Source of the DNA: a virus
Taxonomy: Duplodnaviria; Caudoviricetes
Reading direction: 5' to 3' (one strand)
Length of the DNA: 31,243 nucleotides
IMG/VR virus record: IMGVR_UViG_3300037851_000533
Coordinates: 1-31,243 of that record
Shown here: one piece after another, positions 1,654-26,565 of the stretch
Numbering within the stretch: position 1 is the stretch's first letter
How the letters are laid out: each line of letters begins with the position of its first letter
The notes under the pieces: model-generated
Told to the model about the DNA's origin: nothing
What the model saw: only the letters and a program-made list of their open reading frames with translations
Databases searched by the model: none
Program-made: the position numbers and the translations under genes

Positions 1654-1860
1654 AAAAATCAGAAAAAACTATCGCTAATCCGCTCCGAAAAACCGTATGA
1701 AATCGCTCCGCGCATCAGGCGGCCTTTCTCATGACAGTTGTTTCTTCCTGCTTCACAGAGGCACGTTTCACACGGGGCTTGCGCACCGTGCCAGAGCGTA
1801 TCTCTCCACAGGCTGACACCGCAGAGCTTGCGGCATGTCGGGCGAGGTTCATGGCCGCGT
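1654..1860 (-). ncRNA. Putative TnpB omega/reRNA: scaffold overlapping the tnpB 3' end up to the IS right end (1680), with flank-derived guide starting ATTAGCGATAGTTTTTTCTG
   Basis: Position inferred from established TnpB biology; scaffold ends ...TTTTTCGGAGCGG; 5' boundary approximate. Confidence 0.6.
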
Positions 1861-2902
1861 TCACATCGCGGTCGGCCTCAAATCCACAATCATCGCAGCG
1901 GAACAACCTTTCCGCCAAGGCCAGCGTCGGCTTAACGACGCCGCAGCAAGAACAGGTCTTGCTCGAAGGATACCAGCGATCCGCGACAACAAGCCGCGAA
2001 CCATACCAATTCGTCTTGTATTCCAACTGACGGCGAAACTCATGAAAGCCGCCGTCCATGATTGAACGTGCCAGCTTGCCGTTGGCGGCCATACCGCGCA
2101 CGTTCAAATCCTCGATGCAGACGGTGCCATATGTCCTGGCCAGTCGTGTTGTCAGCTTGTGCGTTGCATCCTTGCGGATATTGGCGATGCGGGCATGGAT
2201 CTTTTGCAAGCGCAACTTTGCCTTGCGCCAGTTGGCGCTTCCCTTGCGTCGCCTTGCCAATGTCTTGTTCGCACGGCGCAACCGTTTCAGCGCCGCCTTG
2301 TGCGCCTTCGGCCCTTCAATAGTCTCACCGTTTGAAAGCGTAGCAAGCGCCTTGATGCCCAGATCCACGCCGATGCTTTCACCATTGTTGGCGACCGGCT
2401 GGATGTCGTCGGTCTCGATCATGATGGAAACGAACCAGCGCCCGGCTTTACAGGACACCGTGGCGCGCTTCATCGGGCCGCTAAAGCGGACGGCCTCGCG
2501 CATCCTGATCCAGCCAACAACGGGCAACTTGATGCGCTTGCCATCGGCGCGGAATGTGCCAGCCTCGTTGGCTGCGCAGAAGCTGGCCTTGTCGTCCTTG
2601 CGCTTGAAGCGCGGGTATTTGCTCCGCTTGGCGAAGAAGCTGCCGAAGGCCGCGCCAAGGTCAATGATGGCCTCTTGGACCACGACCTTGGACACATCAT
2701 ACATCCAAGGAAACTGTTCACGCTTGATGGCGTTCAGGGCGCGGCGCAGCGAGACATCGGACGGCTTGCCGCCCTCCTTGTGTTGCCGCTGCCATTCGGC
2801 CAGCGCCCAGTTATAGGCAAAGCGGGCCGTGCCAGCAGCGCGGGCCAGGTAGAGCCGCTGGGCCGCGTTTGGCGCGAGCGCGATCTTATGGGCGACTAGC
2901 AT
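1715..2902 (-). CDS. tnpB: RNA-guided endonuclease TnpB (IS607-associated)
   Basis: N-terminal HTH (AGTARFAYNWAL), RuvC triad GVDLG / CIEDL / DRDVNAA intact, zinc finger CSCCG...CDDCG. Confidence 0.95.
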   Translation of the reverse strand: MLVAHKIALAPNAAQRLYLARAAGTARFAYNWALAEWQRQHKEGGKPSDVSLRRALNAIKREQFPWMYDVSKVVVQEAIIDLGAAFGSFFAKRSKYPRFKRKDDKASFCAANEAGTFRADGKRIKLPVVGWIRMREAVRFSGPMKRATVSCKAGRWFVSIMIETDDIQPVANNGESIGVDLGIKALATLSNGETIEGPKAHKAALKRLRRANKTLARRRKGSANWRKAKLRLQKIHARIANIRKDATHKLTTRLARTYGTVCIEDLNVRGMAANGKLARSIMDGGFHEFRRQLEYKTNWYGSRLVVADRWYPSSKTCSCCGVVKPTLALAERLFRCDDCGFEADRDVNAAMNLARHAASSAVSACGEIRSGTVRKPRVKRASVKQEETTVMRKAA

Positions 2903-3608
2903 TGTTGTCTCCCGCCGTTATCTTCTTAATCGCGCTGTCTTGCAGAACGCTCATTGCTTCCATCAATGAAGAAACGAGCGGGTCATCATGCTCGCCAGCC
3001 GCCTTTTCGACCTTCGCGCCGTCCATTATAGCTTCAATCATTCGCTTGTTCTTGTTCGACCGCGAGCCGTAAAGGCGAGCGCTGAAAACAGTGATTATTT
3101 CAATCACGTCTCGCGCCAATTCTTCCTCAAAGGTCGGTTGTTCGCCCTTGTTGATGATGACGATTTCAATGCTCTGCAATTCGCAAAGCGCAAATATCAG
3201 TTCTGAACCAAACCGAAGCAGTCTGTCCTTGTGTGTCAGCACAAGGCGCTTGACCTTCTTGCGGAGTATCATTTCCAGAAGGCGGTTCAGGCCCTTTTTG
3301 CGATAATTTAGGCCGCTTCCCAAGTCGCTGATGATTTCGAAGCGCCAACCTTTCGCAGCGCAAAATGCCTCCAGCAATTCGCTTTGCCTGACGAGGTCGG
3401 CCTTCTGGTCGTGACTGGAGACGCGTGCATAACCGATTGTCGGCGCGTCCTCGTTCCCAAGGCCAAGCAATTTCGCAAGGTCATAATAGCGCGTGCCGCC
3501 GGCGCTTTTGCGGTCAGGTATCAGTTCGCCAGACGCTTCCCACGCGTGGAGCGTTTGCACACTCACGCCAAGAGCTTCTGCCGCTTTCCCTATCTTAACC
3601 AAAGTCAT
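2886..3608 (-). CDS. tnpA: IS607 transposase TnpA (MerR-like HTH + serine recombinase)
   Basis: KAAEALGVSVQTLHAWE HTH, catalytic YARVSS, DLGSGLN, HKDRLLRFG, FSARLYGSRS. Confidence 0.95.
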   Translation of the reverse strand: MTLVKIGKAAEALGVSVQTLHAWEASGELIPDRKSAGGTRYYDLAKLLGLGNEDAPTIGYARVSSHDQKADLVRQSELLEAFCAAKGWRFEIISDLGSGLNYRKKGLNRLLEMILRKKVKRLVLTHKDRLLRFGSELIFALCELQSIEIVIINKGEQPTFEEELARDVIEIITVFSARLYGSRSNKNKRMIEAIMDGAKVEKAAGEHDDPLVSSLMEAMSVLQDSAIKKITAGDNNASRP

Positions 3609-8207: not shown

Positions 8208-8951
8208 ATGAAAAAAGCACTTCTCTTTGCGGCAACGGCGGTTGTCTTGCTGCATTTTTCACCGGCGCAAGCGCAGACGCAAACGCTAGACAATAGCGCG
8301 CAAGCCAATTCCAACGCCAATTCGGGTTCGTATTCTGCTTCCGGTGCAAGCTCTGACCAGTCGCAAGGTCAATCACAGGGGCAGAATCAGGGTCAATCGC
8401 AGGGACAAAATCAAGCGCAAAACCTGCAATCGTCGCAAGCCCTTCAATCGTCGCAAGGCAATGCTCAGAACATCACATTCAATAGCAAGTCGCCGGACAA
8501 GCTTGAAGTGATGGCTAACCAGAACGTTCCACTCGCGGCATCGGTCAGTTTCTCCAGCGATTATTGCTCCGGCACGGCTTCCGGCGGCGTTTCAACGTCA
8601 CTCGGCTTTAGCCTTGGCGGCGCTAAGCCGGTTGAGGACAATAATTGCCAAGCCCTTCGTCGCGCAGAAAAATACAGCATCATCTCGGTCACGGCCAAAA
8701 ATATGGGTTACCATGACTGGGCCGGTAAGTTGATGAGTATGTCGATCTTTGAACTCTGCCGTGCAACGCGCTCGGATACGCCCAAGGGCAGCGGTGATCC
8801 TTGCGTCACTGTCGGCTTGCTTGGCATGAGTGAAACGCCTCCTGCTGAAGCAGCCGCTTCCGTAAAGGCAACGCCCGCACAGGATGCAGGCGACAACCCT
8901 GTTCAGACCACTCCGGTCTTGAGCGCCGCTGCCGTTGCTTTCCGACCCTAG
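8208..8951 (+). CDS. Secreted protein with Q/S/N/G low-complexity region and a four-Cys domain
   Basis: RBS AAGGAG; signal peptide MKKALLFAA...AQA; (S/N)QGQ repeats; CSGTASGGVS...DNNC; Pro/Ala-rich tail. Confidence 0.85.
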   Translation: MKKALLFAATAVVLLHFSPAQAQTQTLDNSAQANSNANSGSYSASGASSDQSQGQSQGQNQGQSQGQNQAQNLQSSQALQSSQGNAQNITFNSKSPDKLEVMANQNVPLAASVSFSSDYCSGTASGGVSTSLGFSLGGAKPVEDNNCQALRRAEKYSIISVTAKNMGYHDWAGKLMSMSIFELCRATRSDTPKGSGDPCVTVGLLGMSETPPAEAAASVKATPAQDAGDNPVQTTPVLSAAAVAFRP

Positions 8952-9000
8952 CAACGGTGGCACCCCTTTAACTTAGTGCACTTTTTGAAAGGTTAGTAAC

Positions 9001-9384
9001 ATGAAAAAGCTTGTTTTTGTTCTCGCGGCTCTTGCCGTTTCTTCGCCCGCTCTCGCTGCTGAAGCTGGCGTTTCGCAGGGCGGTTCGACCGCTGTTGCTA
9101 CTTCGAGCACTGGCAGCCAGTCCGCTGGCGGTTCGGTTGCTACCCTCGCTGGCTTGACCGCACAGGGCAGCAGCGCACAGGGTGGCAACACTTCGTTTGC
9201 GCTCACCGGCATCAGCGGCAACGATACCGCAGTTCAGTCTGGCACGCAGGGCTTTACCGCGCAGCAGGGCTTTGGCGCTGCTCTCGGCTTTGCTACCTCG
9301 GTCAACCAGAACATTGCCGTTCAGACCGGTAATGCGGGCGCGCAGGTCAATCTGGTGAGCATTCAGGGTTTCATCCAGCCCTAA
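9001..9384 (+). CDS. Secreted G/A/S/T/Q-rich, nearly uncharged protein (curlin/HfaA-like composition)
   Basis: RBS GAAAGG; signal peptide MKKLVF...ALA; mature part has no K/R and only one E and one D; strongly biased codons (GCT, GGC, ACC). Confidence 0.85.
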   Translation: MKKLVFVLAALAVSSPALAAEAGVSQGGSTAVATSSTGSQSAGGSVATLAGLTAQGSSAQGGNTSFALTGISGNDTAVQSGTQGFTAQQGFGAALGFATSVNQNIAVQTGNAGAQVNLVSIQGFIQP

Positions 9385-9455: not shown

Positions 9456-10931
9456 GTGATTGGAAAAAATTTGATAGGCAAAGTTTTTGGCAGGCTTACC
9501 GTTTTGCAAGAAATGGAGCCACGCAAATATAAATCCGGCGCAAAAGCCCGAATGTATCTGGTGTCTTGCGAATGCGGTAACCGAAAAGTTGTGCAATATA
9601 GCTCGTTGGTATCAGGCTTGACCCGATCATGCGGCTGTTTGCACAAAGAGCAAGCCGTTTGCAATCTTGAAAAAACGAGAGGCGTTCCCGCTTCTAACCG
9701 GCTTGATCTGACCGGCAAGCAGTTTGGCAAACTGACAATTACCGGCATTGCATATATTGAGAAACAATCAACATATTGGAATGCATTATGCGATTGCGGC
9801 AATACAAAAATTGCCAAAGGTGCGTTATTGAAGATGGGCAGCATAAAATCTTGTGGTTGTCGCAAATTAGAGGCTAGTTTTGAAAACGGAAAAGCAAATG
9901 CGGGCAAGAAAAATGTTGTCAAACGGCGAAAAGCCAGAACAGCACACATTGGCAAAATTTATGGCAAACTAAAAATAAACAAGATCCATTGGGTTGCTCC
10001 GAATACGCCTGCTCTTGCTTATTGCACATGCGAATGTGGAACTGAAACAAGCTCGAACCTGAATGATATTCTGCAAGGCAAGACGCAATCTTGCGGCTGT
10101 GGCGTTCACTGGTCAAAGCCATGCGAAGAACTTTTCCAGATTGCCCTGCGATATTGCCCGGACGCAATAAAAGAGTATAGTTTCGGCAGCCGCTATCGTT
10201 ATGACATTGCTATTCCATCAAAAAAAATTGTTATCGAATTTAATGGGGCGATTTGGCATTCGATGAAATATAGAAGCGATACTGGCTTTCATCGGGACAA
10301 GCGGCTTTATGCCGAAAGTCATGGATACCGCATGATAAGCATTTGGAGCGATCAATGGGAAGCGCAGCGCGAACGCATGGTTTTATTGATTGAGCGAGCG
10401 TGTGTTGGAGGCCAGACAAAATTATATGCCCGCAAGTTGAGCGCAGGATTGGTTGATTTTTTCAAAGCGAACGCTTTCCACAAGCGTCATCATATCCAAG
10501 TTGGCCGCGTATCCGCCTCTCAAAACATTGCTCTTTTTGAAGGCGGCGAGATTGTTGCTGTCGCCAGTTTTAAAGGCAACGAACTGCTGCGATATTCGGT
10601 GAAAGACGGTGTTGGAATAGTCGGCGGCCTTGCAAAATGTATAGCCGCTTCCGGCTTGGATGTCGTTGTGACATATTGCGACCGCGATCATTTCACCGGC
10701 GGGCTGTATGCGGCTTGCGGCTTTCGGCATGTCGGCACAACTTTGCAGCTTTCCTATCTTTTCAAAGGAGAAAGATGCAGGCGCGAAAAATTTATGAAGC
10801 ATAAATTGTCCGCCCTTGGCATTGAAGTATTGCCGGATGATACGGAAAAAACGGCGCTAGAGCGCGCTGGCATTTATGGGTGCTTCAATAGTGGAATTGA
10901 TAAGTGGATTTGGCGCAAATCGGAACGCTAG
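9456..10931 (+). CDS. Hef-like homing endonuclease: three Cys-rich repeats + Vsr/DUF559-like PD-(D/E)XK domain + GNAT-like C-terminal domain
   Basis: Three GKxFG(R/K)L...C(E/D)CG...SCGC repeats; YDIAIPSKKIVIEFNGAIWHS; VAVASF...LLRY...TYCDRDHF...GF; GTG 9456 is the likely start. Confidence 0.75.
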   Translation: MIGKNLIGKVFGRLTVLQEMEPRKYKSGAKARMYLVSCECGNRKVVQYSSLVSGLTRSCGCLHKEQAVCNLEKTRGVPASNRLDLTGKQFGKLTITGIAYIEKQSTYWNALCDCGNTKIAKGALLKMGSIKSCGCRKLEASFENGKANAGKKNVVKRRKARTAHIGKIYGKLKINKIHWVAPNTPALAYCTCECGTETSSNLNDILQGKTQSCGCGVHWSKPCEELFQIALRYCPDAIKEYSFGSRYRYDIAIPSKKIVIEFNGAIWHSMKYRSDTGFHRDKRLYAESHGYRMISIWSDQWEAQRERMVLLIERACVGGQTKLYARKLSAGLVDFFKANAFHKRHHIQVGRVSASQNIALFEGGEIVAVASFKGNELLRYSVKDGVGIVGGLAKCIAASGLDVVVTYCDRDHFTGGLYAACGFRHVGTTLQLSYLFKGERCRREKFMKHKLSALGIEVLPDDTEKTALERAGIYGCFNSGIDKWIWRKSER

Positions 10932-10989: not shown

Positions 10990-11109
10990 ATGCAGCACAA
11001 AACAATTTCTGCCGCAATCACTAAGGGTAAGGACAATAACGGCACGTTTGTTCTGACCTCCACGGCTCTTGACCGTGACGGCGATGTCATTACCGAAAGC
11101 GCGAGATAA
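10990..11109 (+). pseudogene. Orphaned 5' fragment (39 codons) of a prohead protease gene
   Basis: GTFVLTSTALDRDGDVI aligns with GTFIISSTSRDRDGDNI of 11975..12547. Confidence 0.8.
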
Positions 11110-11115
11110 ATTAAT

Positions 11116-11982
11116 ATGAATTATGAGCGCATATATAATGAATTCATCGAAAATAGGCGTTTGATTGAGCCTGCAATTTTTTCTGGTGCCAAATTAAATT
11201 TGAGGAGCAGATTGAGAAAACAAATAAAAAAAGACGGGGCATTTTTGTTTGGTAATTATGAGACTCATCATATTTTACCAAAGTCTCTTGGCGGGGATGA
11301 CGAGATTTGTAACCTTATTACACTTACTATTTCAGATCATATATTCGCGCACATGCTGCTTGCAAAAATTTATGGCGGCTCTCAATGGTTTTCCATTGAG
11401 CGTATTCTTTGCAATTATCCTGGTAAATATGTTACAGATAAACGCGTTCGCAGATTTTGTGAGAAAGCAAAAATAAAAGCAAATTTGACAAAAAGTAAGA
11501 TGATGTCAGAAATGAAAAAGGACCATGAATATATAGCCAAGATACAGGAAGGTGTATCTAAAGCTAGGGAAGATAAAAAAATATATCACTTCTGGCACTC
11601 TTTACACGGCGATGTGCATTGCACTCGCAATGAATTGGAAGCGCTTTACGGAGTAAACAAATTAACATCTTGGGCGATTTGCACTGGCAGGACTCTAATG
11701 ACTAGGAGCGGCTGGTGTGTTGTTGAATTCAATCCTGAGCGTAAGCCTCTTGATACAAGGGCTGTTCAACTGCGTGAATCAAATCCTATGAAAAGGGAAG
11801 AAATTTACGAAAAAGTTATGGCTACGCGAAAAACGTTAGATTCAAACGACCCAGGAAGGTATAAAAGATATTCGCTAAATAGAATTTACGCTAAAGGGGA
11901 AAAACATCACATGCATGGCAAGGCCCCTTTACTTGGCAAAAAGCGCATAACTGACGTTCACGGGAAGACCAGATATGTCTGA
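11116..11982 (+). CDS. Free-standing HNH homing endonuclease (Mob-like, with NUMOD3-like tail)
   Basis: MNYERIY...ETHHILPKSLGG...NLITLT...HIFAHMLL; KGEKHHMHGK; AT-rich relative to the flanks. Confidence 0.85.
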   Translation: MNYERIYNEFIENRRLIEPAIFSGAKLNLRSRLRKQIKKDGAFLFGNYETHHILPKSLGGDDEICNLITLTISDHIFAHMLLAKIYGGSQWFSIERILCNYPGKYVTDKRVRRFCEKAKIKANLTKSKMMSEMKKDHEYIAKIQEGVSKAREDKKIYHFWHSLHGDVHCTRNELEALYGVNKLTSWAICTGRTLMTRSGWCVVEFNPERKPLDTRAVQLRESNPMKREEIYEKVMATRKTLDSNDPGRYKRYSLNRIYAKGEKHHMHGKAPLLGKKRITDVHGKTRYV

Positions 11983-14575: not shown

Positions 14576-15643
14576 GTGGCAAATTTAATGCCATTAAGTT
14601 TCAGGCATGGCAGGTGCGCAAGACAGGTGCTTGACCGGCGTAAGGTCAAGCGCCATTTGCGTTTACCTGAAAAGATTGTCGCAGAATTGGATTTTCTCGC
14701 ACAGAGCATCGATCTCGAAAAGACATCGGCGTTTGTATTTTTTGCTGGCGCGGATTTGTGGACCATACAGACTTTGGACGTCTGTATCAGCGCTACGCAT
14801 GATACCGCTGGAACGGAAGCGAACTTTTTTTGCGGCGTAGGGGTAACATATTCGCTTTTTCACGAAGATCATAGACTTGGCCCTAAAATCATAGTGCCTT
14901 GGGATTACCTGACGCTAGATTCGGAATCAGGGGAGCATATAGTCTATAGCTGTTTGCTTGAATCTGTAAAAACACAACAAATGTATTACAGCGGTTACGT
15001 AAGAGAAAATGTTACTCGTAGCCATGTTCTTCAAAACACTACCGGCCCAAGAGATTTTTCTGACACGTTTCATCCAAGAGAGCCGACTTATATTGGTAAG
15101 ACATCGCAAGGGCTTGCGCATAGGGCGTTGCAGCATATCCAAAGCGCGGCTTCCGGGTCAAATACGAGATTTCACTTGGCGATGCGCGGCAACGACAAGT
15201 TTTTGCCTATGCTTCCTACATTTACTCCTGTGAACTCATATCCTGATTCTGACGCTGCGTACGAAGCAGAAGATGAACTGATAAAATTTTACGCTGTCGA
15301 TAATCATGAATCTATTTTCACGTTGAACACGGTTAAATCAGGCGACGCATTGAAAGAACTTCTGGAGCGCCATCCCCATCTGTTCGGCAAAGTCAGCCGC
15401 GAACATGCAGAAGAAATACTGACTAGCAGAAAGTCGGCTACGAGCCTGCTTTGGAACGATCCAGATTTCGCGGAGCGAGTAATTTGCAATAATCCACGCA
15501 ATCTGGACGCGAACACTGTTCGCAATATCAGATTCATGGCATCCTTAGGCGCGACAAGGAGAGAAATACAGAGAGCTACAGGGGTAAGCGATATGCGGAT
15601 CAAAATGCTTGTCGGCAAAAAGACCTACGGGAGAATCATGTGA
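14576..15643 (+). CDS. GIY-YIG-like homing endonuclease with C-terminal HTH
   Basis: TYIGKTSQGLAHRALQH (YIG..T...R...H), YEAEDELI (catalytic Glu), ATRREIQRATGVS HTH; GTGA overlap with portal; no clear GIY half. Confidence 0.6.
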   Translation: MANLMPLSFRHGRCARQVLDRRKVKRHLRLPEKIVAELDFLAQSIDLEKTSAFVFFAGADLWTIQTLDVCISATHDTAGTEANFFCGVGVTYSLFHEDHRLGPKIIVPWDYLTLDSESGEHIVYSCLLESVKTQQMYYSGYVRENVTRSHVLQNTTGPRDFSDTFHPREPTYIGKTSQGLAHRALQHIQSAASGSNTRFHLAMRGNDKFLPMLPTFTPVNSYPDSDAAYEAEDELIKFYAVDNHESIFTLNTVKSGDALKELLERHPHLFGKVSREHAEEILTSRKSATSLLWNDPDFAERVICNNPRNLDANTVRNIRFMASLGATRREIQRATGVSDMRIKMLVGKKTYGRIM

Positions 15644-17121
15644 CGGTTGACAAGCAGAACTTCAATCTTTCTTCATGGCTTCGCAACAACGAAGAAAAGA
15701 TCCTTGCCCCGTTGTTCGATGGTTCGGTTGACCATTCGACAAAAGGATTTCTCGGTTCCGGGATTGAAGGCTCTTGGCGCGGCCCGTTCTATGGCCAAGG
15801 TGAACTTGGTCATAGTTTCATGCTTGGGCCGCTGGAGGACGGCTGGCAGCGCAATTTGCATATTTCGCAAAATGCAGCGCGCAACTTGCCAGTCATTGCG
15901 GCAGGCCGGTCTGGTTTCAGAAACGCATGGGCTTTGCTCATTCCCCAAGTTTTGAAAGTTTCTGGCGATACGATAACCAAAGACACAAGCAGCATAGCTT
16001 TCAAGACTTTGCTCAACCCGAACCCGTATGAAACCGGCGCGGATTTCAATGCGCGTTTTATAGATCAGGTTCTGTGTCACGGTGAAGTGCTAGTCTATGG
16101 GGTAAAGAATAACCGCTACGAAACGAACGCGCTTTATATCATACCGCGCCCTGCATGGACGCCTGTTATCGACAATGAAACGGGTGCGCTGTTTTACGAC
16201 ATCAATCTGTCGATGGACGATCTGCGCGAAGGCATGGAAACAATCCGCGTTTCGCATAATGACGTCATTCATTTCAGATGGTCTTGCCCAAGGCATCCGC
16301 TGATAGGCGAAGGGCCGTTGGCAGCGGCGGCGATTTCGGCGGGTATCAATGTTGCTTTATCGGCTTCGCAGCTTGCATTTTTCAGCCAGTCGCGCAGGCC
16401 GTCCGGGATTATCTCCACCGATCAATCGTTGAATGTCGAGCAAATGAAACGCTTGCGCGAGGCATTTGACAATCAGGCGGCGGATTTGGCGCGTGGCGGG
16501 ATTCCGATCCTAGCCAACGGGATGAAATTCCAGCCGATGTCGCTGACATCGCAGGACGCGCAAGTGCTGGAGGCGATGAATTTCAGTGTTGAGGATTTGG
16601 CCCGTTGTATGTGCATCCCGCCCCAACTTGTCGGCCATTTGAAAAATGCGAATATCGCCAATACCGAGCATTTGATTAGTCACTGGCTGTCAATCGGCCT
16701 TGGCGGATTGATCGAGCGATACGAACGCCAGCTTGAACGTATCTTCAAGATGGACGGAATTACCACGAAAATTAATTTCGACCTAAGCTCGCTGTTGCGC
16801 ACTGATTTTGCCGCTCGCATGGAAGCCTATGGCAAAGGCGTTATGAGCGGTATCCTGTCGCCCAATGAAGTGCGCGAGAAGGAAGGTTTGACGGCCAAGG
16901 AAGGCGGCGACAATCTTTTCCTGCAACGCCAGCAAACACCGGTTTCGTTGCTTACCGATCTGGCTGTAAGTGAGATAGGCGCGGTTGCGCAAGGCTTGGC
17001 AAATACCGTAGAGCCTGAAAACGCGCTGCAAGAGGCAGGCGAAAAGATTGACCCGGAAGTTTCAAAGGCTCTGGTTGTTTCGATGATGGAATATAAGCGC
17101 AAGGAGGCGAAGGCAGCGTGA
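15640..17121 (+). CDS. Portal protein, HK97 family
   Basis: PNPYETG, VIHFR, GEGPL, RPSGII, GMKFQP, IPPQLVG, LLRTD, SPNEVREKEG. Confidence 0.95.
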   Translation: MTVDKQNFNLSSWLRNNEEKILAPLFDGSVDHSTKGFLGSGIEGSWRGPFYGQGELGHSFMLGPLEDGWQRNLHISQNAARNLPVIAAGRSGFRNAWALLIPQVLKVSGDTITKDTSSIAFKTLLNPNPYETGADFNARFIDQVLCHGEVLVYGVKNNRYETNALYIIPRPAWTPVIDNETGALFYDINLSMDDLREGMETIRVSHNDVIHFRWSCPRHPLIGEGPLAAAAISAGINVALSASQLAFFSQSRRPSGIISTDQSLNVEQMKRLREAFDNQAADLARGGIPILANGMKFQPMSLTSQDAQVLEAMNFSVEDLARCMCIPPQLVGHLKNANIANTEHLISHWLSIGLGGLIERYERQLERIFKMDGITTKINFDLSSLLRTDFAARMEAYGKGVMSGILSPNEVREKEGLTAKEGGDNLFLQRQQTPVSLLTDLAVSEIGAVAQGLANTVEPENALQEAGEKIDPEVSKALVVSMMEYKRKEAKAA

Positions 17122-20100
17122 ACGAAAAAGCGATAGCAAGTGCGTTAGAGCCTGTTGTCGATAGCCTTATCGAACTGGAAAGCCGTGTCGAAAGCATATC
17201 AAAGGCTGCTGGCCCGCAGGGGGAAGCGGGCAAGGATGGCCGCGACGCAGACCCACAAGACGTCGCGGCCATTTTAATTAAGGACCATGCCGATGTTTTG
17301 CGTGGCGCTCCCGGCAAAGACGGCAAGGATGCCGAGCCGGTTGACGTTGATCTTGTCGCCAAGGCACTGGCAGAAACTTACGCCGATACGCTCAAAGGGC
17401 AGGATGGTAAGGATGCCGAGCCGGTTGACGTTGATCTTGTTGCCAAGGCACTGGTTGAGAACCACGCTGACACGCTCAAAGGGCAGGACGGCAAAGACGC
17501 CGAACCTGTCGATGTCGAGCTAGTCGCAAAGGCGCTTGTTGAGAACCACGCCGACACGCTCAAAGGTCAGGACGGCAAGGACGCCGACCCGGTTGACGTT
17601 GAACTTGTCGCCAAGGCACTGGCCGAAACTTACGCCGATACGTTGAGGGGTAGCGACGGTAAGGACGCCGAGCCGGTTGACGTTGAACTGGTCGCTAAAA
17701 CTTTATCGACTGACTATGCGGACGCCTTGCGCGGCGAAAAGGGCGCTGACGGTGTAGGCATAATGGCCAAGCAATGGGAGCCGGGCGTCTATCGTGAAGG
17801 CACGATTGTTCAGCATGACATTGGGCGCTTTTCGATTGCGCTGAAGGATACGGCGAGTGAGCCTTGGGCGAGCGATGACTGGCAGCGGATCGGCACCGGC
17901 GGCTTTCGTTTCTGCGGGTTGAAGCGAGAGGGCCGCGAATATCAGGTTGGCGATATTTTCATAGATGACGGCTCCTGCTTCATGCAGACCGAAAAGAAGC
18001 CGCGCATGATTGTCCAAAAGGGCAAGCCGGGTGAGAAAGGCGAAAAAGGAGACAGGGGCGAAAAGGGTGATAGCGCGCCCGATATTATCGGCGTTGAATT
18101 TGACGCTAACGGCAATCTGGTCATCATCAAGTCTGACGGCAATATAATCGAGGTCAAAGGGCTTGCGCTTAAAGAGTCGATGAAAGCCTATGCCGAGACG
18201 TTTGTCGAGGTTCAGAAACGGCTCAATATCATCGACCAGATGATTGCCGACTATCAGGATATTGACATTCCTGTCCGCGAATATCGCGGCTTATGGAAAC
18301 GCAGCACAGCCTATAAAAAAGGCGCGCTTGTGACTTATGACGGTAGCTTGTGGCTCGCTACCAAAGACACTAGCGGCGCAGCCCTTACTCATGTCGATTG
18401 GGTGCAGTTGGCGGGTAAGGGCGGAAGCGGCGGGACTGGTCGCAAAGCGCCTGCCGCTTCCCCATTTAACGTAGTCGCGACGCCTGCGCTGATTCCGGCG
18501 CAAGGGGCTGGCGATGGCGATACCTATTTTGCTTTCAGTGATAAATTGCTTCGCGTCTGGGATGCAGGCACTAATCGTTGGCGCGTTCTGTCCGGTTTTC
18601 AGGTCGCCAATACGGCGGCGAACCTTCCCGCCAACGGGCAAGCGGGCGATGTTTTTCTGACAGCCGATGACCACGCCATGAATTTCTGGATTGGCGGGCA
18701 GTGGGTGAAGAATCTTGACGGCGCTTATACTGCCGCAAGTGCTGCGGAACAGGCGCTAATTCAGCCGCAACCCAACGGTCGCCTGCTTTTCCGCTCCGAT
18801 ATCCCCGAAGTTTTTGTAGCTGATCAAGGCGCTTGGGTAAGCACGATTGGCGGCTCTCCTGTCAGGGTTGTCGCCAACCTTGCGGCAATGAACCTGATAA
18901 CTAATCCCAATGTCGGTGACTTGGCTTACAGGCAGGATATTGGCGAACTGTTTGTTTACGATAACGGCCAATGGAATGCTGCAGAGCATGTCTTGCACGT
19001 CTATAATGACGAGACCGCCCGCCTTGCCGCTGCTAGCGTGTTTGATAACAGTTTTGGTTTTCAGCGTGATACAAGTGCTCTTTATATCCGCGATAATAAC
19101 GCTTGGGTTGAAATCGGCGGTAGCGGCGCGGGCGTATCAAGCGTAAACAATCAGGCGGCAAGATATAATCTAGTCCCCGCACAGGTTCCACTTGGCGGGC
19201 TGGTTTATCAGGCTGACACCGGAGTCCTTTGGGAATATACAGGCCCAAGCCCTGCTACAGCCGCAACGATTGCCGCGCCGGGATCATGGACACAGATAAC
19301 GAGCGTTGGCGCGACACCGAAAGTTATCGAGATTGCCAATCCGGCAGCACTCCCTTCGGCACAAGCGGCTGCATCGGATAGCAGTCAACCGCTTTATCTT
19401 ATTAGGCAGGACGCATTGGGCAATCCGCTTAATCGGCTTGTCTGGTTCGAGAATACGACACCTGCCGCCCCCGGCTCGCCTGCTTCTGGCAACTGGTTGA
19501 ACGTCAACACAGAGAATTTCGTTAAAGACTTGGTTGCCGATCAGGATATTGCGGGCAATCGCCGCGAAGGTGATTTTCAGGCGACAATCGAGCCAGACCA
19601 TGCGCAGTTGAAGGTATTTGCTAATGGCACTTGGCAGATGCTCTTCAACGAGGATGAAATCCGCAGTTGGATTGCCGCTGGGTCGCTTTTCCAAGGCACG
19701 GTAATGAATCCGCCTGTAGTGGGCGGCGCTACGGATTTTGCGCAGTTGCCTGCGCCAGCGACGAACTGGAAAGGCTATTATTGGACTTGGGTAGGCTCGC
19801 CAAACTATCAGGTTAATGACGGCGCTCCGATACAGGCTGACCCGAATTACCACGCAATAACATATACGCTCAATCCGGCTGTGCTACCCGCCGCCGCCAA
19901 TACTCCTGTTACCGTGACGATTGATGTTGCTGGCGGCGGTGCGGTTGGAATTGCCCATAGTGTCACTGTCACTATCACGACTGCGGGAAATGCAAATGCA
20001 GGCTCTAAGCATGTTGTCGCCAATTTGGCAGATACCGATACGGCCAATGATGTTGCCGCTAAACTTGAAGCCGAATGGCGCGATGGGGACGTAGGGCTTG

Positions 20101-23100
20101 ACGTAACCGTAAATAACAACGTTCTGACATTAACGCCTACGGACGCTACCATATTGGTTCAGGCGATAACGCCGCTTCCCGATGGTGCTACGCCTGTTAT
20201 CGGGGTTGATTTGGATGGCGAAACACTACAAGTTGGCGACTGGTTGCAGGTTGTAACAGACCCTAACGGCGGCTATCGTTGGGCGCATGTGCCTTCGGAT
20301 TTGCTATCAAAGCTTCGTGGCGACAATCTTTATTCGTTGCAACCTTGGGCGGCTGGCACATGGGAGCGTAATAGCGTTGTAAGCCATGACTGCCGTATAT
20401 GGCGGGCTATGCGCGGCGTTTCCGCGCAAGATCCTGCACCACAGTTGACAGGCGTTCCAATCACTATCCTTGGTCAAGCGCTGATTAACTATCCCGATAG
20501 TGTTGCAGATGTAAATGCGTGGTTCGTTGCATCGCCATCAAACGGCGCACATAGCGGTGAGTATATTGTAATCAATGCCAATGGCGGCGGCACTTATACT
20601 TTGCCCGGCGGCGGTAGTATGACGGCTGTTTCCGGCGATGCAATTCTCAATCTTGGAAACGAACTTTTAGGAACGGAAGGCTATGCTGTTGTGCCGGGGC
20701 CTTTCGCTGTAGGCGTTACGCCTGCCGCGATAATCAGGGCAACGCCGCGCACAAGCGCAACCAATCCTACTGGCGGCATACCAATTCCATCGGGCGCAAG
20801 GCTACAGCAACAATTCGGTGCAACCAACGTGCCTGGCCAACGCCTCGTTATAACGGCTGATTTCGTCGTTCCTCCGGGACTGCCGCTTGCTGGAACTCGA
20901 TTGAGCGCTGGCGATACAATCTGGTTTACTGACGATCTCGCTAATGGCGACGAGGGCTGGGTGCATGTCACGGGCGCGGCGCTAGGTGCTAACGACCAAC
21001 CGCCGTTCGTTCCTGATACGGCTGTCCAGCATCACATAACCAGTGCAGCAGTTGGCCAATCGGCGCTTGATTTGCTTTTGCAGGATTTGGACGGCAACGG
21101 GTTGCAAGATGGCGATATCATTTTAATTAACGCGGCTGGCAGATTGCAGACAGCGGCAACCAATGCGCCTGTCGGCACGGCGCTTGCGGTCAACGACTAT
21201 CTCGAAGTCATTAGTGCGGCGCAAAATACATTCCAGTATTTCTCTGGACCCTATCAGACAGGGGCGGCAATCCCGATTACTGTAACGCCGGTTTTTGTGC
21301 GAGGTTATGGCGATCAATGGCAAGACCCAAACACCGACGATTTTTCGGACATTCTTACCCGTCCGACGAATACACTGACATTGCATTCGGCATATGGCTA
21401 TATTGGCCGTGGCAGCCCGAAGGCAGTCAATCCTGCATGGCCTTCTGCTGGTAATCTCGCCAATACCAACCTGCCAAATACAAACGGTGTCTGGTATCAA
21501 GCGACGTTGGTAAGCCTTCGACCGTTGACTTGGGATGTTCGCGCAACAAATTATGATGTAAACGGCTGGCCAGCGAACGGCTCTACCCTGCCAAACATTA
21601 CGGTTAATGTCGTGGCCCAAGGCCCTGCCGCAACGGTATCGGCGGCGGCGGGCGTTGCGTTCACATGGGCAGACTTTTCGGCAACTTTGGACTGGAGCAA
21701 TGCAGGCACGGCCCCAAACAATTTTGGCGTCGGGCAAGGGCAGTATTTTATAGTTGACGAAGCTACTGCCGCTGTCCCTGCTGGCCCCGGCGCTGGCAAT
21801 TTGGCTGGGCAGTCTGTGGCTATTAACAGCCGTGTCTACATGACGAGATTTAATCCGCCGCGCTGGGCGGTTTATACTGCTGGCAATTATCCTACAAGCG
21901 GATTGCTTATCGAAGGGGCGCAGCCGGTTGACCCGACTACGCTTTCGCATAACAGGCCGCAAACTTTACGACCGCCATCTCCATCGCCTGTCACGACTGT
22001 TGCGGGCTTACCTGCCAACGCTTCACCTTGGGAACTTATCTGCATCGAGGGTAACTGGCATAGCGTTTTGAACGACAGCGAATTGCCCGCTGCGGGTGCG
22101 CTTCCGAACGAGGTTTATTTTGTTTCGTCGAGCGCAAGGAATAATAATCAGCCTTCGCTTTACAGCTATTCGGGCGGTCTATGGTTCCAGTTGGGAGGCA
22201 GCCAAGGCGGGATTCAGGCTGTTTCGAGATTGCCCGCCGCGCATAATCCGGGCGATATGTTCCTGCATTCGCCAACGGGAACGCTTCATATCAGTAACGG
22301 GAGCCAGTTATTCCAGATTGGTATGCAACCAACTGGGCCGGTTAATGCAGAAGGCATAATCACTGGCAGGGATTCAGGCGTTCATAGTTGGACGCCGCGT
22401 GTATGGAGTGCCGGGACTGTTGTTGTCGATCAGGGCGGACTTTATCGCGCCGCCCAACAAGTTTCTTCTCTCGACCCTGCACCAAGTCAAAGCCTTGTAA
22501 TTGTCTTTGCGACGTTCACAAAGATTGACGACTGGGCGAATAACTTGGCGGTCGATACCGCCTTCCTTACTGCGTCGCCTGCTGGCAGCTATGCTGCGGT
22601 AGGTGGAAGCGTTGCAACAAATATAAGCATCGGCAGCCCTGCCTATAATGTTGATTTCCCTGCCAACTCTTTTGTGATTTGGACAGGCAATTCCAACCTC
22701 AATCTTACGCTTGGCAATGGCCAGCGCATTGTTGACGGGCTATGGATTTGCACCGGCTCTTTGCCCGCCACCCCATATACTTTGTCGGCAAGCAATCCTG
22801 TTTGGGAATGGCTCGGCCATATCGGGACAGGGATTTACTACAATAACGGGACCGGCATCCTCGGCGCTCCTCGCCCAAGAGTGCAAGGCGACCTGCTTGT
22901 CGGCCATAGCGGTCGGCAAGATCATCCTCGCATTTTGGGCGTATCGCAGGATGGTGTGCATTGGACTGAATATGGCGGGGCGGGCAAGAACCTGCCGACG
23001 AGCTATTATGGCGCTACGCCGCCTGCTAATCCGTTAAAGGGTGATTTGTGGGTTGATACGGGAACGATTATCCCGAAACTCAAAATGTATAACGGCACGT

Positions 23101-23765
23101 CATGGACAGAAAGTATTGGCGCTGTCTGGCATGGTCCTGCCGCGAACAAGCCAGCTTATAACACTTCTGAATGGGGTGACATTTATATTGAAGATGACGG
23201 CGACAGAAATGTCTGGATTGCAGCTTCCGGTGCATGGCGCAAGATTTACAATGGCGCTACCGAGAATGTAGATTTGCCGCCAACGGATTCAACCGGGCAA
23301 TCAAGAGACATTCCTGTCGGTTCGATGATTACTTTGGCCGGTGTTGCTAAAGCCAATGCAACCGCTGACACCCTTGCTCTTATCGCGCTTAACAAGGCGG
23401 ACGGCAGCAAGCCAACGGTTGCTGATTTTATCCGCAACGAGATACTGGATACCGACTATAATGCAAATGGTTCGTCAAAGCAGCAGGCCCCCTCTAACGT
23501 AAATGGCTCAACGCCCGGATGGTGGAATCTAAATTGGGAAAAAATGACTTCTGGAAGCATGGCGCAAGTAAATGTTACGCTTGGTATCATCGGTGGTATC
23601 GGCAGTGTTTTAGCCGAAACGCATTATGAAACGCCAAACGGGCATCGCCATAAGTCAATAACGAAACTTATCTGGAATAACGACGCTATGCCGCTCAAAC
23701 AATTCTATTTTTCAAATATTCAGGGCGTTGAGATGGAGTGGTATCGCATTGGTAAGGTAGATTAA
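17118..23765 (+). CDS. Giant (2215 aa) collagen-repeat, fibre-like virion protein
   Basis: G-X-Y stretches, 28-aa tandem repeats, W...Y..G..V.YDG..W carbohydrate-binding-like modules and many GD-x-aromatic beta modules; GTGA overlap with portal. Confidence 0.8.
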   Translation: MNEKAIASALEPVVDSLIELESRVESISKAAGPQGEAGKDGRDADPQDVAAILIKDHADVLRGAPGKDGKDAEPVDVDLVAKALAETYADTLKGQDGKDAEPVDVDLVAKALVENHADTLKGQDGKDAEPVDVELVAKALVENHADTLKGQDGKDADPVDVELVAKALAETYADTLRGSDGKDAEPVDVELVAKTLSTDYADALRGEKGADGVGIMAKQWEPGVYREGTIVQHDIGRFSIALKDTASEPWASDDWQRIGTGGFRFCGLKREGREYQVGDIFIDDGSCFMQTEKKPRMIVQKGKPGEKGEKGDRGEKGDSAPDIIGVEFDANGNLVIIKSDGNIIEVKGLALKESMKAYAETFVEVQKRLNIIDQMIADYQDIDIPVREYRGLWKRSTAYKKGALVTYDGSLWLATKDTSGAALTHVDWVQLAGKGGSGGTGRKAPAASPFNVVATPALIPAQGAGDGDTYFAFSDKLLRVWDAGTNRWRVLSGFQVANTAANLPANGQAGDVFLTADDHAMNFWIGGQWVKNLDGAYTAASAAEQALIQPQPNGRLLFRSDIPEVFVADQGAWVSTIGGSPVRVVANLAAMNLITNPNVGDLAYRQDIGELFVYDNGQWNAAEHVLHVYNDETARLAAASVFDNSFGFQRDTSALYIRDNNAWVEIGGSGAGVSSVNNQAARYNLVPAQVPLGGLVYQADTGVLWEYTGPSPATAATIAAPGSWTQITSVGATPKVIEIANPAALPSAQAAASDSSQPLYLIRQDALGNPLNRLVWFENTTPAAPGSPASGNWLNVNTENFVKDLVADQDIAGNRREGDFQATIEPDHAQLKVFANGTWQMLFNEDEIRSWIAAGSLFQGTVMNPPVVGGATDFAQLPAPATNWKGYYWTWVGSPNYQVNDGAPIQADPNYHAITYTLNPAVLPAAANTPVTVTIDVAGGGAVGIAHSVTVTITTAGNANAGSKHVVANLADTDTANDVAAKLEAEWRDGDVGLDVTVNNNVLTLTPTDATILVQAITPLPDGATPVIGVDLDGETLQVGDWLQVVTDPNGGYRWAHVPSDLLSKLRGDNLYSLQPWAAGTWERNSVVSHDCRIWRAMRGVSAQDPAPQLTGVPITILGQALINYPDSVADVNAWFVASPSNGAHSGEYIVINANGGGTYTLPGGGSMTAVSGDAILNLGNELLGTEGYAVVPGPFAVGVTPAAIIRATPRTSATNPTGGIPIPSGARLQQQFGATNVPGQRLVITADFVVPPGLPLAGTRLSAGDTIWFTDDLANGDEGWVHVTGAALGANDQPPFVPDTAVQHHITSAAVGQSALDLLLQDLDGNGLQDGDIILINAAGRLQTAATNAPVGTALAVNDYLEVISAAQNTFQYFSGPYQTGAAIPITVTPVFVRGYGDQWQDPNTDDFSDILTRPTNTLTLHSAYGYIGRGSPKAVNPAWPSAGNLANTNLPNTNGVWYQATLVSLRPLTWDVRATNYDVNGWPANGSTLPNITVNVVAQGPAATVSAAAGVAFTWADFSATLDWSNAGTAPNNFGVGQGQYFIVDEATAAVPAGPGAGNLAGQSVAINSRVYMTRFNPPRWAVYTAGNYPTSGLLIEGAQPVDPTTLSHNRPQTLRPPSPSPVTTVAGLPANASPWELICIEGNWHSVLNDSELPAAGALPNEVYFVSSSARNNNQPSLYSYSGGLWFQLGGSQGGIQAVSRLPAAHNPGDMFLHSPTGTLHISNGSQLFQIGMQPTGPVNAEGIITGRDSGVHSWTPRVWSAGTVVVDQGGLYRAAQQVSSLDPAPSQSLVIVFATFTKIDDWANNLAVDTAFLTASPAGSYAAVGGSVATNISIGSPAYNVDFPANSFVIWTGNSNLNLTLGNGQRIVDGLWICTGSLPATPYTLSASNPVWEWLGHIGTGIYYNNGTGILGAPRPRVQGDLLVGHSGRQDHPRILGVSQDGVHWTEYGGAGKNLPTSYYGATPPANPLKGDLWVDTGTIIPKLKMYNGTSWTESIGAVWHGPAANKPAYNTSEWGDIYIEDDGDRNVWIAASGAWRKIYNGATENVDLPPTDSTGQSRDIPVGSMITLAGVAKANATADTLALIALNKADGSKPTVADFIRNEILDTDYNANGSSKQQAPSNVNGSTPGWWNLNWEKMTSGSMAQVNVTLGIIGGIGSVLAETHYETPNGHRHKSITKLIWNNDAMPLKQFYFSNIQGVEMEWYRIGKVD
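17319..17738 (+). repeat. 84-bp (28-aa) coding tandem repeat, five copies plus a degenerate upstream copy
   Basis: DGKDAEPVDV(D/E)LVAKAL....ADTL(K/R)G at 17319, 17403, 17487, 17571 and 17655. Confidence 0.95.
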
Positions 23766-24221: not shown

Positions 24222-24896
24222 ATGTCTTGGCCGCCTGTGATTGACGACATGCGCAAGCGCATCGGCTTGCAACCAAATGATCCTTCGCGTGATGCCGACA
24301 TTACCGCCGCGCTGGAAATATCGTTGGATTTGGCCGAAACTTATCTAGACCGCAAGCTTACCAAGCAGGCCGATGAGGAAGATTTTTTCGGGGGTTCGAC
24401 TGCCTTCCTTTTGCACCGCTGGCCTGTTGACAGGATTTCCGGCGTTGACATAACCGCCAAGTTTATCGGCTCGCCAATCATTCAATATACATGGTCAACC
24501 ACAGGCTCCGAAAGCTATTTCACTGTTGATTGGGAGAAGGGCATAGTTTTTACGCCAAGCTATGCTCGCGGTTGGCCGTTGACCATAACCTATCGTGGCG
24601 GCTTTGATCCTTTGCCCAACGCCCTGCTTATGGCGCTGTTACAGGTTTTCGATAGCGTATGGACAAGCGACCCCATGCTTGGCGGCACGGCTGGAGGCGG
24701 CATTATACAGGGCAGCGGCGCGGTCAAAAAGGTATCGCTTGTTGGCATAGGCAGTGTCGATCTTGACGTTGGCGCAACCGCTGTCGGGGGCGGTGGCATG
24801 GGGGGCTATGATGAGGGGCCGTGGGGCTTGATACCTGCCAGCGCTATTTCCATTCTGTCGCGCTACCGGCGTGAAAGCGTTGTGGGGATAGGTTAA
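24222..24896 (+). CDS. Head-tail adaptor/connector (gp6/gp15-like)
   Basis: AETYLDRKL, LHRWPV, ITYRGGF..LP..L..A, ILSRYRR; position in the operon. Confidence 0.8.
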   Translation: MSWPPVIDDMRKRIGLQPNDPSRDADITAALEISLDLAETYLDRKLTKQADEEDFFGGSTAFLLHRWPVDRISGVDITAKFIGSPIIQYTWSTTGSESYFTVDWEKGIVFTPSYARGWPLTITYRGGFDPLPNALLMALLQVFDSVWTSDPMLGGTAGGGIIQGSGAVKKVSLVGIGSVDLDVGATAVGGGGMGGYDEGPWGLIPASAISILSRYRRESVVGIG

Positions 24897-26155
24897 TGGG
24901 CGCGGCGGTGCAAAATCCACTTGTCTATTCCGGAATTCCAGCATTGGAATATACCGACCTTTTCAAGTGCCGCCCGTTCCGTTTCGCCTTTGGCAATTGC
25001 AATGCCAAGAGCGCCAAGTTTATGGCGCATGAATTTTTCCCGTCTGTAACGGGTGCTGCCATGCAAATAACTAAGCTGCAAGGTGCATCCAAATTTGACA
25101 AACCCGGAACGGTAATAAATGTCACCTTCAAAAAAATCACGATCACAATAAGTTACAATCGGATTGCTTCCACCGTATGCAGAAACAAGTTTTTCAAGTC
25201 CGCCAGATATGCTCCATCCGCTAGCAATGGTGTAGCGGACAATGCAGGTTTCTTTTTTGCTTTGCCGAAAACTAGCCACAGCTACAATGATATTTTCAGC
25301 AATAAGTGCGATGTGAGTAGTCGCGGCAACTCGCCCGCTTTGGATATGGTTTGCGGTATGAAAAGCATTGGCTTCTGTCGCACTTATCACTTTGACAATC
25401 AAGTTTCGCGCGCCAATCCGGACAAGTTTCGCTTTGTCGAACGCGCGCATAAGATGCTCTTTGATCCTGTCAGGTTTTGTTCGCCAGTCGTCTTGCCAGA
25501 TACTTATCATACGGTATCCGGCAGCTTCCGCAGCAATGCGCTTGCGATAATGGTAACCTTTGTCAACTTTGGCCGCCGAATGCCAAAACACCCCGTTAAA
25601 TTCTATGACGATCTTATGCTTGTGCGATATGATGTCGTATCGAAACTGGCTTTTTCCAATTTTGCGATTGGTTTCAATTTCAATGCCGGTTTCCGAAAGA
25701 AAATCGGCAATGCTACATTCCTCACGAGACGGTTTGGACGCGCCGCACCCGCAAGTTTGAATTTCTCCGGATTTCAGATTCCTACCAGAAACAACAGTGT
25801 ATTTCTCGCAATCGCAAATACAATGCCAGTATGTGCGGTATGTTCCACCCGGCGTTTGTCTGGTTTCAAAAAATTCTGTGACAACAAGGTTGCCATATCT
25901 GTTGCCAATAATATCTTGGCGGTTTCGTGCGATACCGCCACGCTTTTTGACAAAAGCCGCCTGCAATCTTTCGATCCGCAAGCATCCGCAAGATTGTGTA
26001 TTCCCGGAGCGAAGAGTGCTAACAGTAAGAAAGCGTTCATTCCCGCAATCGCAAATGCACCGCCAAAGCCAATTCGTGCGCTGTTTTTCGCTCGTTCGCT
26101 CAATAGCAAGCAAACGACCAAAACGCTGGTTTGTAATGTCAACTGTGTGAGTCAT
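24893..26155 (-). CDS. Hef-like homing endonuclease, paralog of 9456..10931, inserted antisense
   Basis: Two Cys-rich repeats; YDIISHKHKIVIEFNGVFWHS; GYRMISIW, TYCDRD, TLQLSYL, RREKFM.HKL.ALGI and NSGIDKWI are shared with the paralog. Confidence 0.8.
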   Translation of the reverse strand: MTHTVDITNQRFGRLLAIERTSEKQRTNWLWRCICDCGNERFLTVSTLRSGNTQSCGCLRIERLQAAFVKKRGGIARNRQDIIGNRYGNLVVTEFFETRQTPGGTYRTYWHCICDCEKYTVVSGRNLKSGEIQTCGCGASKPSREECSIADFLSETGIEIETNRKIGKSQFRYDIISHKHKIVIEFNGVFWHSAAKVDKGYHYRKRIAAEAAGYRMISIWQDDWRTKPDRIKEHLMRAFDKAKLVRIGARNLIVKVISATEANAFHTANHIQSGRVAATTHIALIAENIIVAVASFRQSKKETCIVRYTIASGWSISGGLEKLVSAYGGSNPIVTYCDRDFFEGDIYYRSGFVKFGCTLQLSYLHGSTRYRREKFMRHKLGALGIAIAKGETERAALEKVGIFQCWNSGIDKWILHRRAH

Positions 26156-26203
26156 ATGCTATTGCATTACAGAAAACATACATATTATCAAGAGGGGTTT
26201 TAG
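24896..26203 (+). CDS. 435-codon frame overlapping the endonuclease gene on the opposite strand, coupled to both neighbours (function unknown)
   Basis: ATG overlaps the adaptor stop (TAATG); TAG overlaps the next GTG (TAGTG); no recognisable protein motifs. Confidence 0.45.
   Translation: MGAAVQNPLVYSGIPALEYTDLFKCRPFRFAFGNCNAKSAKFMAHEFFPSVTGAAMQITKLQGASKFDKPGTVINVTFKKITITISYNRIASTVCRNKFFKSARYAPSASNGVADNAGFFFALPKTSHSYNDIFSNKCDVSSRGNSPALDMVCGMKSIGFCRTYHFDNQVSRANPDKFRFVERAHKMLFDPVRFCSPVVLPDTYHTVSGSFRSNALAIMVTFVNFGRRMPKHPVKFYDDLMLVRYDVVSKLAFSNFAIGFNFNAGFRKKIGNATFLTRRFGRAAPASLNFSGFQIPTRNNSVFLAIANTMPVCAVCSTRRLSGFKKFCDNKVAISVANNILAVSCDTATLFDKSRLQSFDPQASARLCIPGAKSANSKKAFIPAIANAPPKPIRALFFARSLNSKQTTKTLVCNVNCVSHMLLHYRKHTYYQEGF
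26164..26191 (-). promoter_or_regulatory. Putative promoter of the antisense endonuclease (leaderless)
   Basis: TTGATA-16 nt-TAATGC, ATG 8 nt downstream. Confidence 0.4.
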
Positions 26204-26565
26204 TGGCGCTCCCGACAACCGCATGGCTTCAAGCTAATTTTGCGCCGATCTATGCGCTGATAGATAGTGTCGGCACAACCGTTATCATTCGTGAAAACAC
26301 CGCGCCGGGCGCATGGTCTGATCACGGGCCGATTAAAGCCAAAATCAACCCTGTCAAAATGGAAGACCTGATACAAGGCTCATCGGTCAAGCAAGGCGAT
26401 ATGTTTGTTATCGTAAAGGCTGACAGCTTTCCTGTTGCCCGCCAGCTTGAACAGAAGGACCGCATACGTATTGATGGCAGGGACTATTCGGTTATCAATG
26501 ACGACCGGCACCAGCACCGCATAGGCGACAAGACCTATGCCCGCGTCATTCATGTGAGGGGGTAG
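26203..26565 (+). CDS. Head closure/stopper protein
   Basis: KDRIRIDGRDYSVI...IHVRG beta-barrel pattern; size and position; RBS GAGGGG. Confidence 0.7.
   Translation: MALPTTAWLQANFAPIYALIDSVGTTVIIRENTAPGAWSDHGPIKAKINPVKMEDLIQGSSVKQGDMFVIVKADSFPVARQLEQKDRIRIDGRDYSVINDDRHQHRIGDKTYARVIHVRG

Follow-up and report, generated by a model that had tools for sequence, protein, structure and literature searches.

The window analyzed here is the whole 31,243-base contig of a tailed phage (IMG/VR record IMGVR_UViG_3300037851_000533), whose plus strand carries all of the terminase, protease, capsid, portal, adaptor, stopper, and tube genes, as recognized by Pfam and PHROG matches. At one junction of this late operon, between the head-tail adaptor gene (24222..24896, plus strand; phrog_442, E value 8e-13; 16 homologues) and the head-closure or stopper gene (26203..26565, plus; phrog_161, E 1e-5), a Hef-type free-standing endonuclease gene of 420 amino acids lies on the opposite strand (24893..26155, minus; phrog_3339, E 3e-51; phrog_559, E 8e-45). 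Read on the plus strand, the insertion forms a stop-free frame of 435 codons (24896..26203), codon-aligned with the endonuclease, which we refer to as the bridge frame. The insert consists of the endonuclease open reading frame (ORF) and 47 nucleotides (nt) alone, and as Rfam gave no match in the window, a group I or II intron was rejected. These 47 nt are an AT-rich leader (26156..26202), presumed to be the promoter region of the endonuclease on the minus strand and forming on the plus strand the last 15 codons of the bridge frame, which open with an in-frame ATG at 26156; a promoter scan of the leader found no sigma-70 consensus for the endonuclease. The stopper gene is full length, beginning at a new GTG that overlaps the TAG of the bridge frame.

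The bridge frame starts at the ATG of a TAATG containing the adaptor stop (24894-24896) and ends at the TAG of a TAGTG containing the stopper GTG (26203), with coordinates, register, and overlaps as claimed in the initial annotation of this sequence. The TTAATG hexamer at 24893..24898 combines the endonuclease stop on the minus strand, the adaptor stop on the plus strand, and the ATG of the likely ancestral stopper start. Because the endonuclease ends on the TTA just ahead of the ATG at 24896, the codon register is forced, and the start and the register of the frame amount to a single event. The endonuclease is optional, being absent from the same site in the two closest phages without the insert (L284 and L285), in which adaptor and stopper overlap by one base, in TAATG and TGATG, respectively. 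As these relatives overlap at this point and their stoppers, 50% and 62% identical to that of the window, align from residue 1, the ATG at 24896 probably served as the stopper start before the insertion, which supports the earlier suggestion to that effect. At the other end, the bridge frame keeps the ancestral one-base overlap and stops exactly on the new GTG, 5 nt before which the insert has brought a Shine-Dalgarno-like sequence, AAGAGGGG (26190..26197, plus). What calls for an explanation is the stretch of 420 open codons together with the frame-correct end (about 1 in 3). A programmed frameshift joining the bridge frame to the stopper was rejected by inspection, as the TTT-TAG site would shift +1 into a short frame and not into the stopper frame.

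The endonuclease uses none of the codons TTA, CTA, and TCA (0/0/0) among its 23 Leu and 27 Ser codons, in agreement with the original codon counts, where ∼6–8 would be expected; the remaining two plus frames over the insert contain 13 and 21 stops. The openness of the reverse frame is full length, codon-aligned, and free of the three stop-forming codons, as in ambigrammatic genes. The sense-oriented paralog of the same operon (9456..10931, plus), 40% identical and serving as a control, has exactly 12 such codons in 491, previously put at 12 or more in about 490, and another sense-oriented close homologue keeps 10 in 541 at a G+C content of third codon positions (GC3) of 0.67. The probability of finding zero was 1.4e-3 with the codon usage of the window and 1.4e-4 with that of the paralog, 1.2e-3 to 2.1e-3 under box-level models, 1.7e-4 from three sense endonuclease genes, and 3.8e-3 under an over-dispersed model fitted to 160 genes of GC3 0.40-0.52, the endonuclease itself having a GC3 of 0.45. 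None of the 101 genes with at least 40 Leu and Ser among these 160 lacks all three codons, and A-ending codons are not broadly avoided in the endonuclease (32/154 in the other four-fold boxes). Among genes of at least 420 codons in the fetched loci, a comparable open run was found in 0/36 at GC3 0.4-0.5 (longest 381) and 1/31 at GC3 0.5-0.6; in related phages, the numbers for such genes were 0/21 below GC3 0.6 and 27/91 above. The view that chance openness is unlikely is supported by these probabilities, 1e-4 to 4e-3 by codon usage, and by the recurrence of the avoidance in two close homologues described below.

Chance would nevertheless produce much of what is seen if the ATG and the register were forced by insertion at TTAATG, the TAG came from a duplicated or re-created junction, and the stopper relied on its own ribosome-binding site, leaving the long frame idle. 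The endonuclease is poor in Leu and Ser (11.9%), the aligned reverse frame is anyway the most open one, the per-gene probability reaches ∼1e-3 to 4e-3 in lenient models, and genes of GC3 0.47-0.56 contain reverse runs of 354-395 codons. Between 26151 and 26200, none of the three plus frames has a stop, so the passage of the bridge frame through the AT-rich leader is not special, and the observation that it spans the promoter region, though true, carries little weight. Antisense relatives without depletion of the three codons and the very large scan behind this case, both detailed below, point in the same direction. An idle frame is harder to reconcile with an end that coincides with the new start and retains the one-base overlap of the ancestral junction, and with full openness in 0/265 family members with DNA yet in two close homologues. 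We judge a chance origin to be unlikely, its probability being kept high all the same by the size of the scan.

The two homologues were the only matches of a phmmer search with the plus product, P0143 (597 amino acids, E 1.6e-10) and P0144 (541 amino acids, E 5.6e-6). Read backward, both are codon-compatible with close homologues of the endonuclease (P0143 with P0002, 81%), at an estimated GC3 of ∼0.60. By our reading of the alignment, they begin at most ∼7 codons from the inferred nuclease end, span the nuclease, and extend ∼14–30 codons beyond it. At the family rate for GC3 ∼0.60, 525 open codons have a probability of 1.6e-5 (pooled) to 1.3e-3 (mean per gene). A product search can reveal open frames alone, and eight other close homologues were unreadable on the reverse strand; a profile search that scored 8000 candidates, and missed P0143 itself, found no further reverse-frame homologues, nor were any found in phage records. 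For the wider family, we ran four scans of viral contigs and metagenomes and one of GTDB genomes, with the best 80 loci each at most, and homologues outside the automatic search patterns were possibly missed. In 426 loci, 392 matches gave 265 dereplicated family members, many sharing part of the domains and with orientation taken from automatic ORF picking. None of these 265 members, nearly all distant, lacks TTA, CTA, and TCA, and the frame that is open in P0143 and P0144 is closed in all of them. The close relatives with DNA were limited to one sense-oriented homologue (L352/L355) among the matches listed from viral contigs, metagenomes, and GTDB genomes; single-protein scans with the adaptor and the tube gave no matches.

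The matches to P0143 and P0144 are database products resembling the plus product, and its coupled ATG means that it would be translated, as expected if the plus frame encoded a real protein of 435 amino acids, such as a nuclease inhibitor or a part of the virion. The conservation of the product is not above chance: its identity is 21% to P0143 and 20% to P0144, whereas a neutral simulation with no protein-level selection predicts 23-24% (standard deviation 1.6), and its identity to the stop-riddled reverse frames of two sense homologues is 23% and 19%. Pfam and PHROG searches found no family for the product, Atlas recognition (826) gave a best score of 0.79, counted as low, and the composition is odd, with 9.9% Phe, 0.9% Glu, and no Trp. 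Given the chance-level identity, the lack of a family match, and the low Atlas score, a functional plus-strand protein is unlikely on sequence grounds; we assign very little probability to the dual-strand protein or inhibitor initially proposed, which none of these analyses supports.

The explanation that we favor, and hold to be reasonably probable, is that the bridge frame is kept open by selection for the passage of ribosomes, against polarity across the 1.3-kb insert. Untranslated mRNA is subject to polarity through Rho or decay. Ribosomes ending the adaptor would, as in the uninterrupted operon, initiate again at the old ATG, whatever follows, and an early stop would then leave more than 1 kb of the late mRNA bare and exposed to Rho termination or decay, at the expense of stopper and tail-gene expression. 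The codon-aligned frame alone could be cleared by synonymous Leu and Ser changes that leave the nuclease intact, and the synonymous removal of all stops is reported to work solely in the aligned frame (bioRxiv 10.1101/761890). Ribosomes arriving at TAGTG would be handed over to the stopper, and what matters would be the act of translation rather than the 435-amino-acid product. The frame might either have been purged in place or have been open already on arrival. Of the two possible benefits, protection from polarity is favored over strict coupling, given that the stopper is preceded by a ribosome-binding site of its own. The initial annotation had proposed both preserved coupling and avoidance of polarity: the junction overlap is indeed present, but a strict need for it is weakened by the Shine-Dalgarno site and by antisense relatives lacking a bridge.

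Several observations weigh against selection for ribosome passage. The window is one of some 250,000 screened, a number at which events of 1e-3 are expected by chance. The stopper can be served by its own Shine-Dalgarno site at 26190-26197, which weakens the need for strict coupling, and the 15-codon in-frame mini-ORF starting at 26156 could by itself couple to the stopper. The homologues P0143 and P0144 each come from a single short contig, of 1924 and 1689 nt, respectively, and were read here at the protein level. The depletion of TTA, CTA, and TCA that had been anticipated for antisense family members was not found: the 55 relatives in antisense context have a rate of stop-forming codons no lower than the sense members, and 0/55 are bridged whichever frame is taken, the best cover being 0.62; their GC3 is below 0.4 in 43 cases and at least 0.4 in 12. 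A smaller count made before had likewise given 0/194 family members and 0/37 in antisense context. In Bas95, the Hef-like gene is antisense and has 19 in-register stops, yet the same TTAA is shared there, so that the sharing of one TTAA by the two stop codons, correctly noted before, is found also where there is no bridge. Akira and T4 segD, like Bas95 antisense in late regions, have 23 and 9 in-register stops. Related phages contained 20 minus-strand candidates, from which 13 were dropped by eye as shadow frames or unclear; the seven real-looking antisense genes kept are all located between terminase and protease, a junction that is gapped in most cases, and 0/7 are bridged. Within the window, an antisense insertion of a resolvase and TnpB pair is unbridged as well, with 9-24 stops per plus frame. 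A bridge is clearly no general need. On the plus strand, a Rho signature of C over G was weak, giving no strong signal.

The gene preceding the Hef-like gene of Bas95 is, as we take it from its motifs, terminase-like. Distant Hef-like genes were also found in antisense orientation in elements filed among viral contigs (L001 and L008-L043, 3320-5245), a setting that we presume to be conjugative-type elements with a neighboring coupling-protein-like gene. Recoded stops in the antisense homologues L001-L043 were rejected, as these belong to conjugative-type elements and TCA codons are kept.

The open frame might instead serve the endonuclease itself, the ribosome-loaded late mRNA silencing the nuclease late in infection via antisense RNA or polymerase collision. 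The layout of the genes is convergent, and T4 endonucleases are tightly down-regulated, the antisense segD being thought to be barely expressed (PMC2988022). Such silencing would not need a frame that ends exactly on the stopper start, and other antisense family members do without the frame; we consider it improbable.

Translational passage as we propose it has its closest counterpart in the ambigrammatic narnaviruses (10.1101/761890, PMC8316113), which similarly possess a full-length codon-aligned reverse frame through avoidance of UUA, CUA, and UCA. The reverse ORF over the narnavirus RNA-dependent RNA polymerase (RdRp) likewise has a product without homologues, and its translation rather than its product is proposed to matter; in Culex narnavirus 1, the reverse frame is translated and has to be intact (PMC8316113). 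Narnaviruses are eukaryotic RNA viruses in which both strands are genome-length RNAs, whereas the present case concerns one inserted gene in the operon of a DNA phage. Here, unlike in narnaviruses, the frame links the stop of the preceding gene with the start of the following one; its requirement and translation, demonstrated for narnaviruses, are a proposal in the present case. The bridge appears by analogy to work like the narnavirus ambigram without being a member of that group, the phage being a tailed DNA phage with no RdRp. Antiparallel frames of prokaryotes have been reported to avoid stops without protein-level selection, in a report that does not mention phage, polarity, or Rho (10.1101/724807). 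The bridge frame resembles these shadow ORFs in its codon-aligned reverse frame, stop avoidance, and lack of any sign of protein-level selection, and differs from them in lying on the strand of the operon mRNA, in its coupled ends, and in a GC3 of just 0.45. T4-like free-standing Hef, seg, and mob genes (PMC2988022) also place a nuclease gene between essential genes with co-conversion of flanks, and their overlaps with neighbors (nrdA/mobE) suggest translational coupling. That coupling concerns sense-oriented genes; the one antisense case, segD, has in-register stops, as given above, and no bridge. Our literature search, which covered few subscription papers, found no published description of such a bridge.

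A selfish gene entering an essential operon of a phage has to leave downstream expression intact. Self-splicing, inteins, sense-strand coupling, and new promoters are the known solutions, to which a stop-free reverse frame would be an addition. If our interpretation is true, the bridge would be for bacterial viruses what the ambigram is for narnaviruses, and its purpose would be clear. It would also explain, in a testable manner, the stop avoidance of some long antisense frames that encode no useful protein, and would provide a design rule for backward gene placement in operons. A broader idea, tentative and leaning toward doubtful, is that a clade of Hef-type homing endonucleases consists of ambigrammatic mobile elements that land backward at coupled late-operon junctions, take over the start codon of the host gene, remain free of stops in the reverse frame over their full length, and rebuild a Shine-Dalgarno sequence with an overlapping start at the far end, which would make them translationally silent without splicing. 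Were this so, it would be a third way, beside introns and inteins, to hide a selfish gene in an essential operon. In a related phage, a close homologue lies in sense orientation between the portal gene and a large gene (L352, 7467-9092, plus), and the position of this copy at the portal junction indicates that the endonuclease clade enters the operon at several of its junctions.

The endonuclease has two Cys-rich repeats at its N terminus and a Vsr/I-Bth0305I-like nuclease domain, and its C-terminal part is predicted to adopt a GNAT/Mom-like fold; tblastn matches to annotated Hef-like phage proteins are ∼31% identical to it. Its AlphaFold 2 model has a predicted local distance difference test score of 82.8, and the middle domain matches the structure 3r3p by profile (E 3e-6) and Foldseek (E 2e-4, TM score 0.80 over the target). 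The phage Hef enzymes are counted in the wider EDxHD/I-Bth0305I family (PMC3239194), with which the nuclease fold is shared. Glu146, Asp174, Asn187, and His192 are present, and E146, D174, and H192 are invariant in the homologue alignment. The position matching D222 of I-Bth0305I is Arg204, being non-Asp also in the homologues P0002 and P0003, and by this sequence criterion the endonuclease is EDxHD-like without being a strict family member. It further differs from I-Bth0305I in having Cys-rich repeats in place of NUMOD2, an extra GNAT/Mom-like domain, and no intron (PMC3239194). The C-terminal domain, residues ∼240-415, has a predicted fold of the GNAT type, with Mom of phage Mu as its nearest match (8bv8, Foldseek E 5e-6); our literature search found no description of a Hef-type nuclease paired with a GNAT/Mom-like domain.

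A hairpin masking the nuclease start was not supported (z about 0). The repeat tool found no terminal or target-site repeats around the insert, and the two insert ends, judged by eye, are alike as TA(A/G)TGG(G)CGC. Nine of the nine listed contig pieces lying inside the insert, from four other sequencing runs, have 0 differences to the window. Among flank pieces in runs X2 and X3, six differ by ∼8–16% and three more by 1-3%; a single X3 piece links the leader to variant alleles from 26368 onward. No RNA dataset was listed as containing the sequence, which is uninformative on expression. The pieces are short, at depth 2-6, with none spanning the insert region, and their identity is uninformative on selection. 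In X2 and X3, the insert and its near flanks (∼24235-26367) show few or no differences between strains that are ∼10% apart further out, and this tract fits possible recent homing with co-conversion of flanks.

Endonuclease-like insertions are found elsewhere in the window, at 9456-10931, 11116-11982, and probably 14576-15643, the last label coming from weak similarity, in addition to the minus-strand gene at 24893-26155; overlaps with downstream genes are also seen for the sense endonuclease genes of the operon. A 39-codon frame at 10990-11109 (plus), directly before the HNH gene at 11116-11982, is 44% identical to the N terminus of the prohead protease (E 3e-8), and the HNH gene overlaps the start of the full protease at 11975. 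By its similarity, the short frame is likely the old protease start left by endonuclease insertion, after which a new start would have been rebuilt and the chain of translation kept. The resolvase and TnpB pair (1715-3608, minus), which we take to be IS607-like, is an antisense insertion after a primase-like gene. Two secreted-looking genes rich in Ser, Gly, and Gln (8208-9384, plus), with no match in Pfam and PHROG searches, lie between the terminase and the sense endonuclease. The portal gene is followed by a gene of 2215 amino acids (17118-23765, plus) with N-terminal repeats, a long tail, and a weak CBM_5_12 match alone; its homologues in related phages vary in length, from about 280 to >1600 amino acids.

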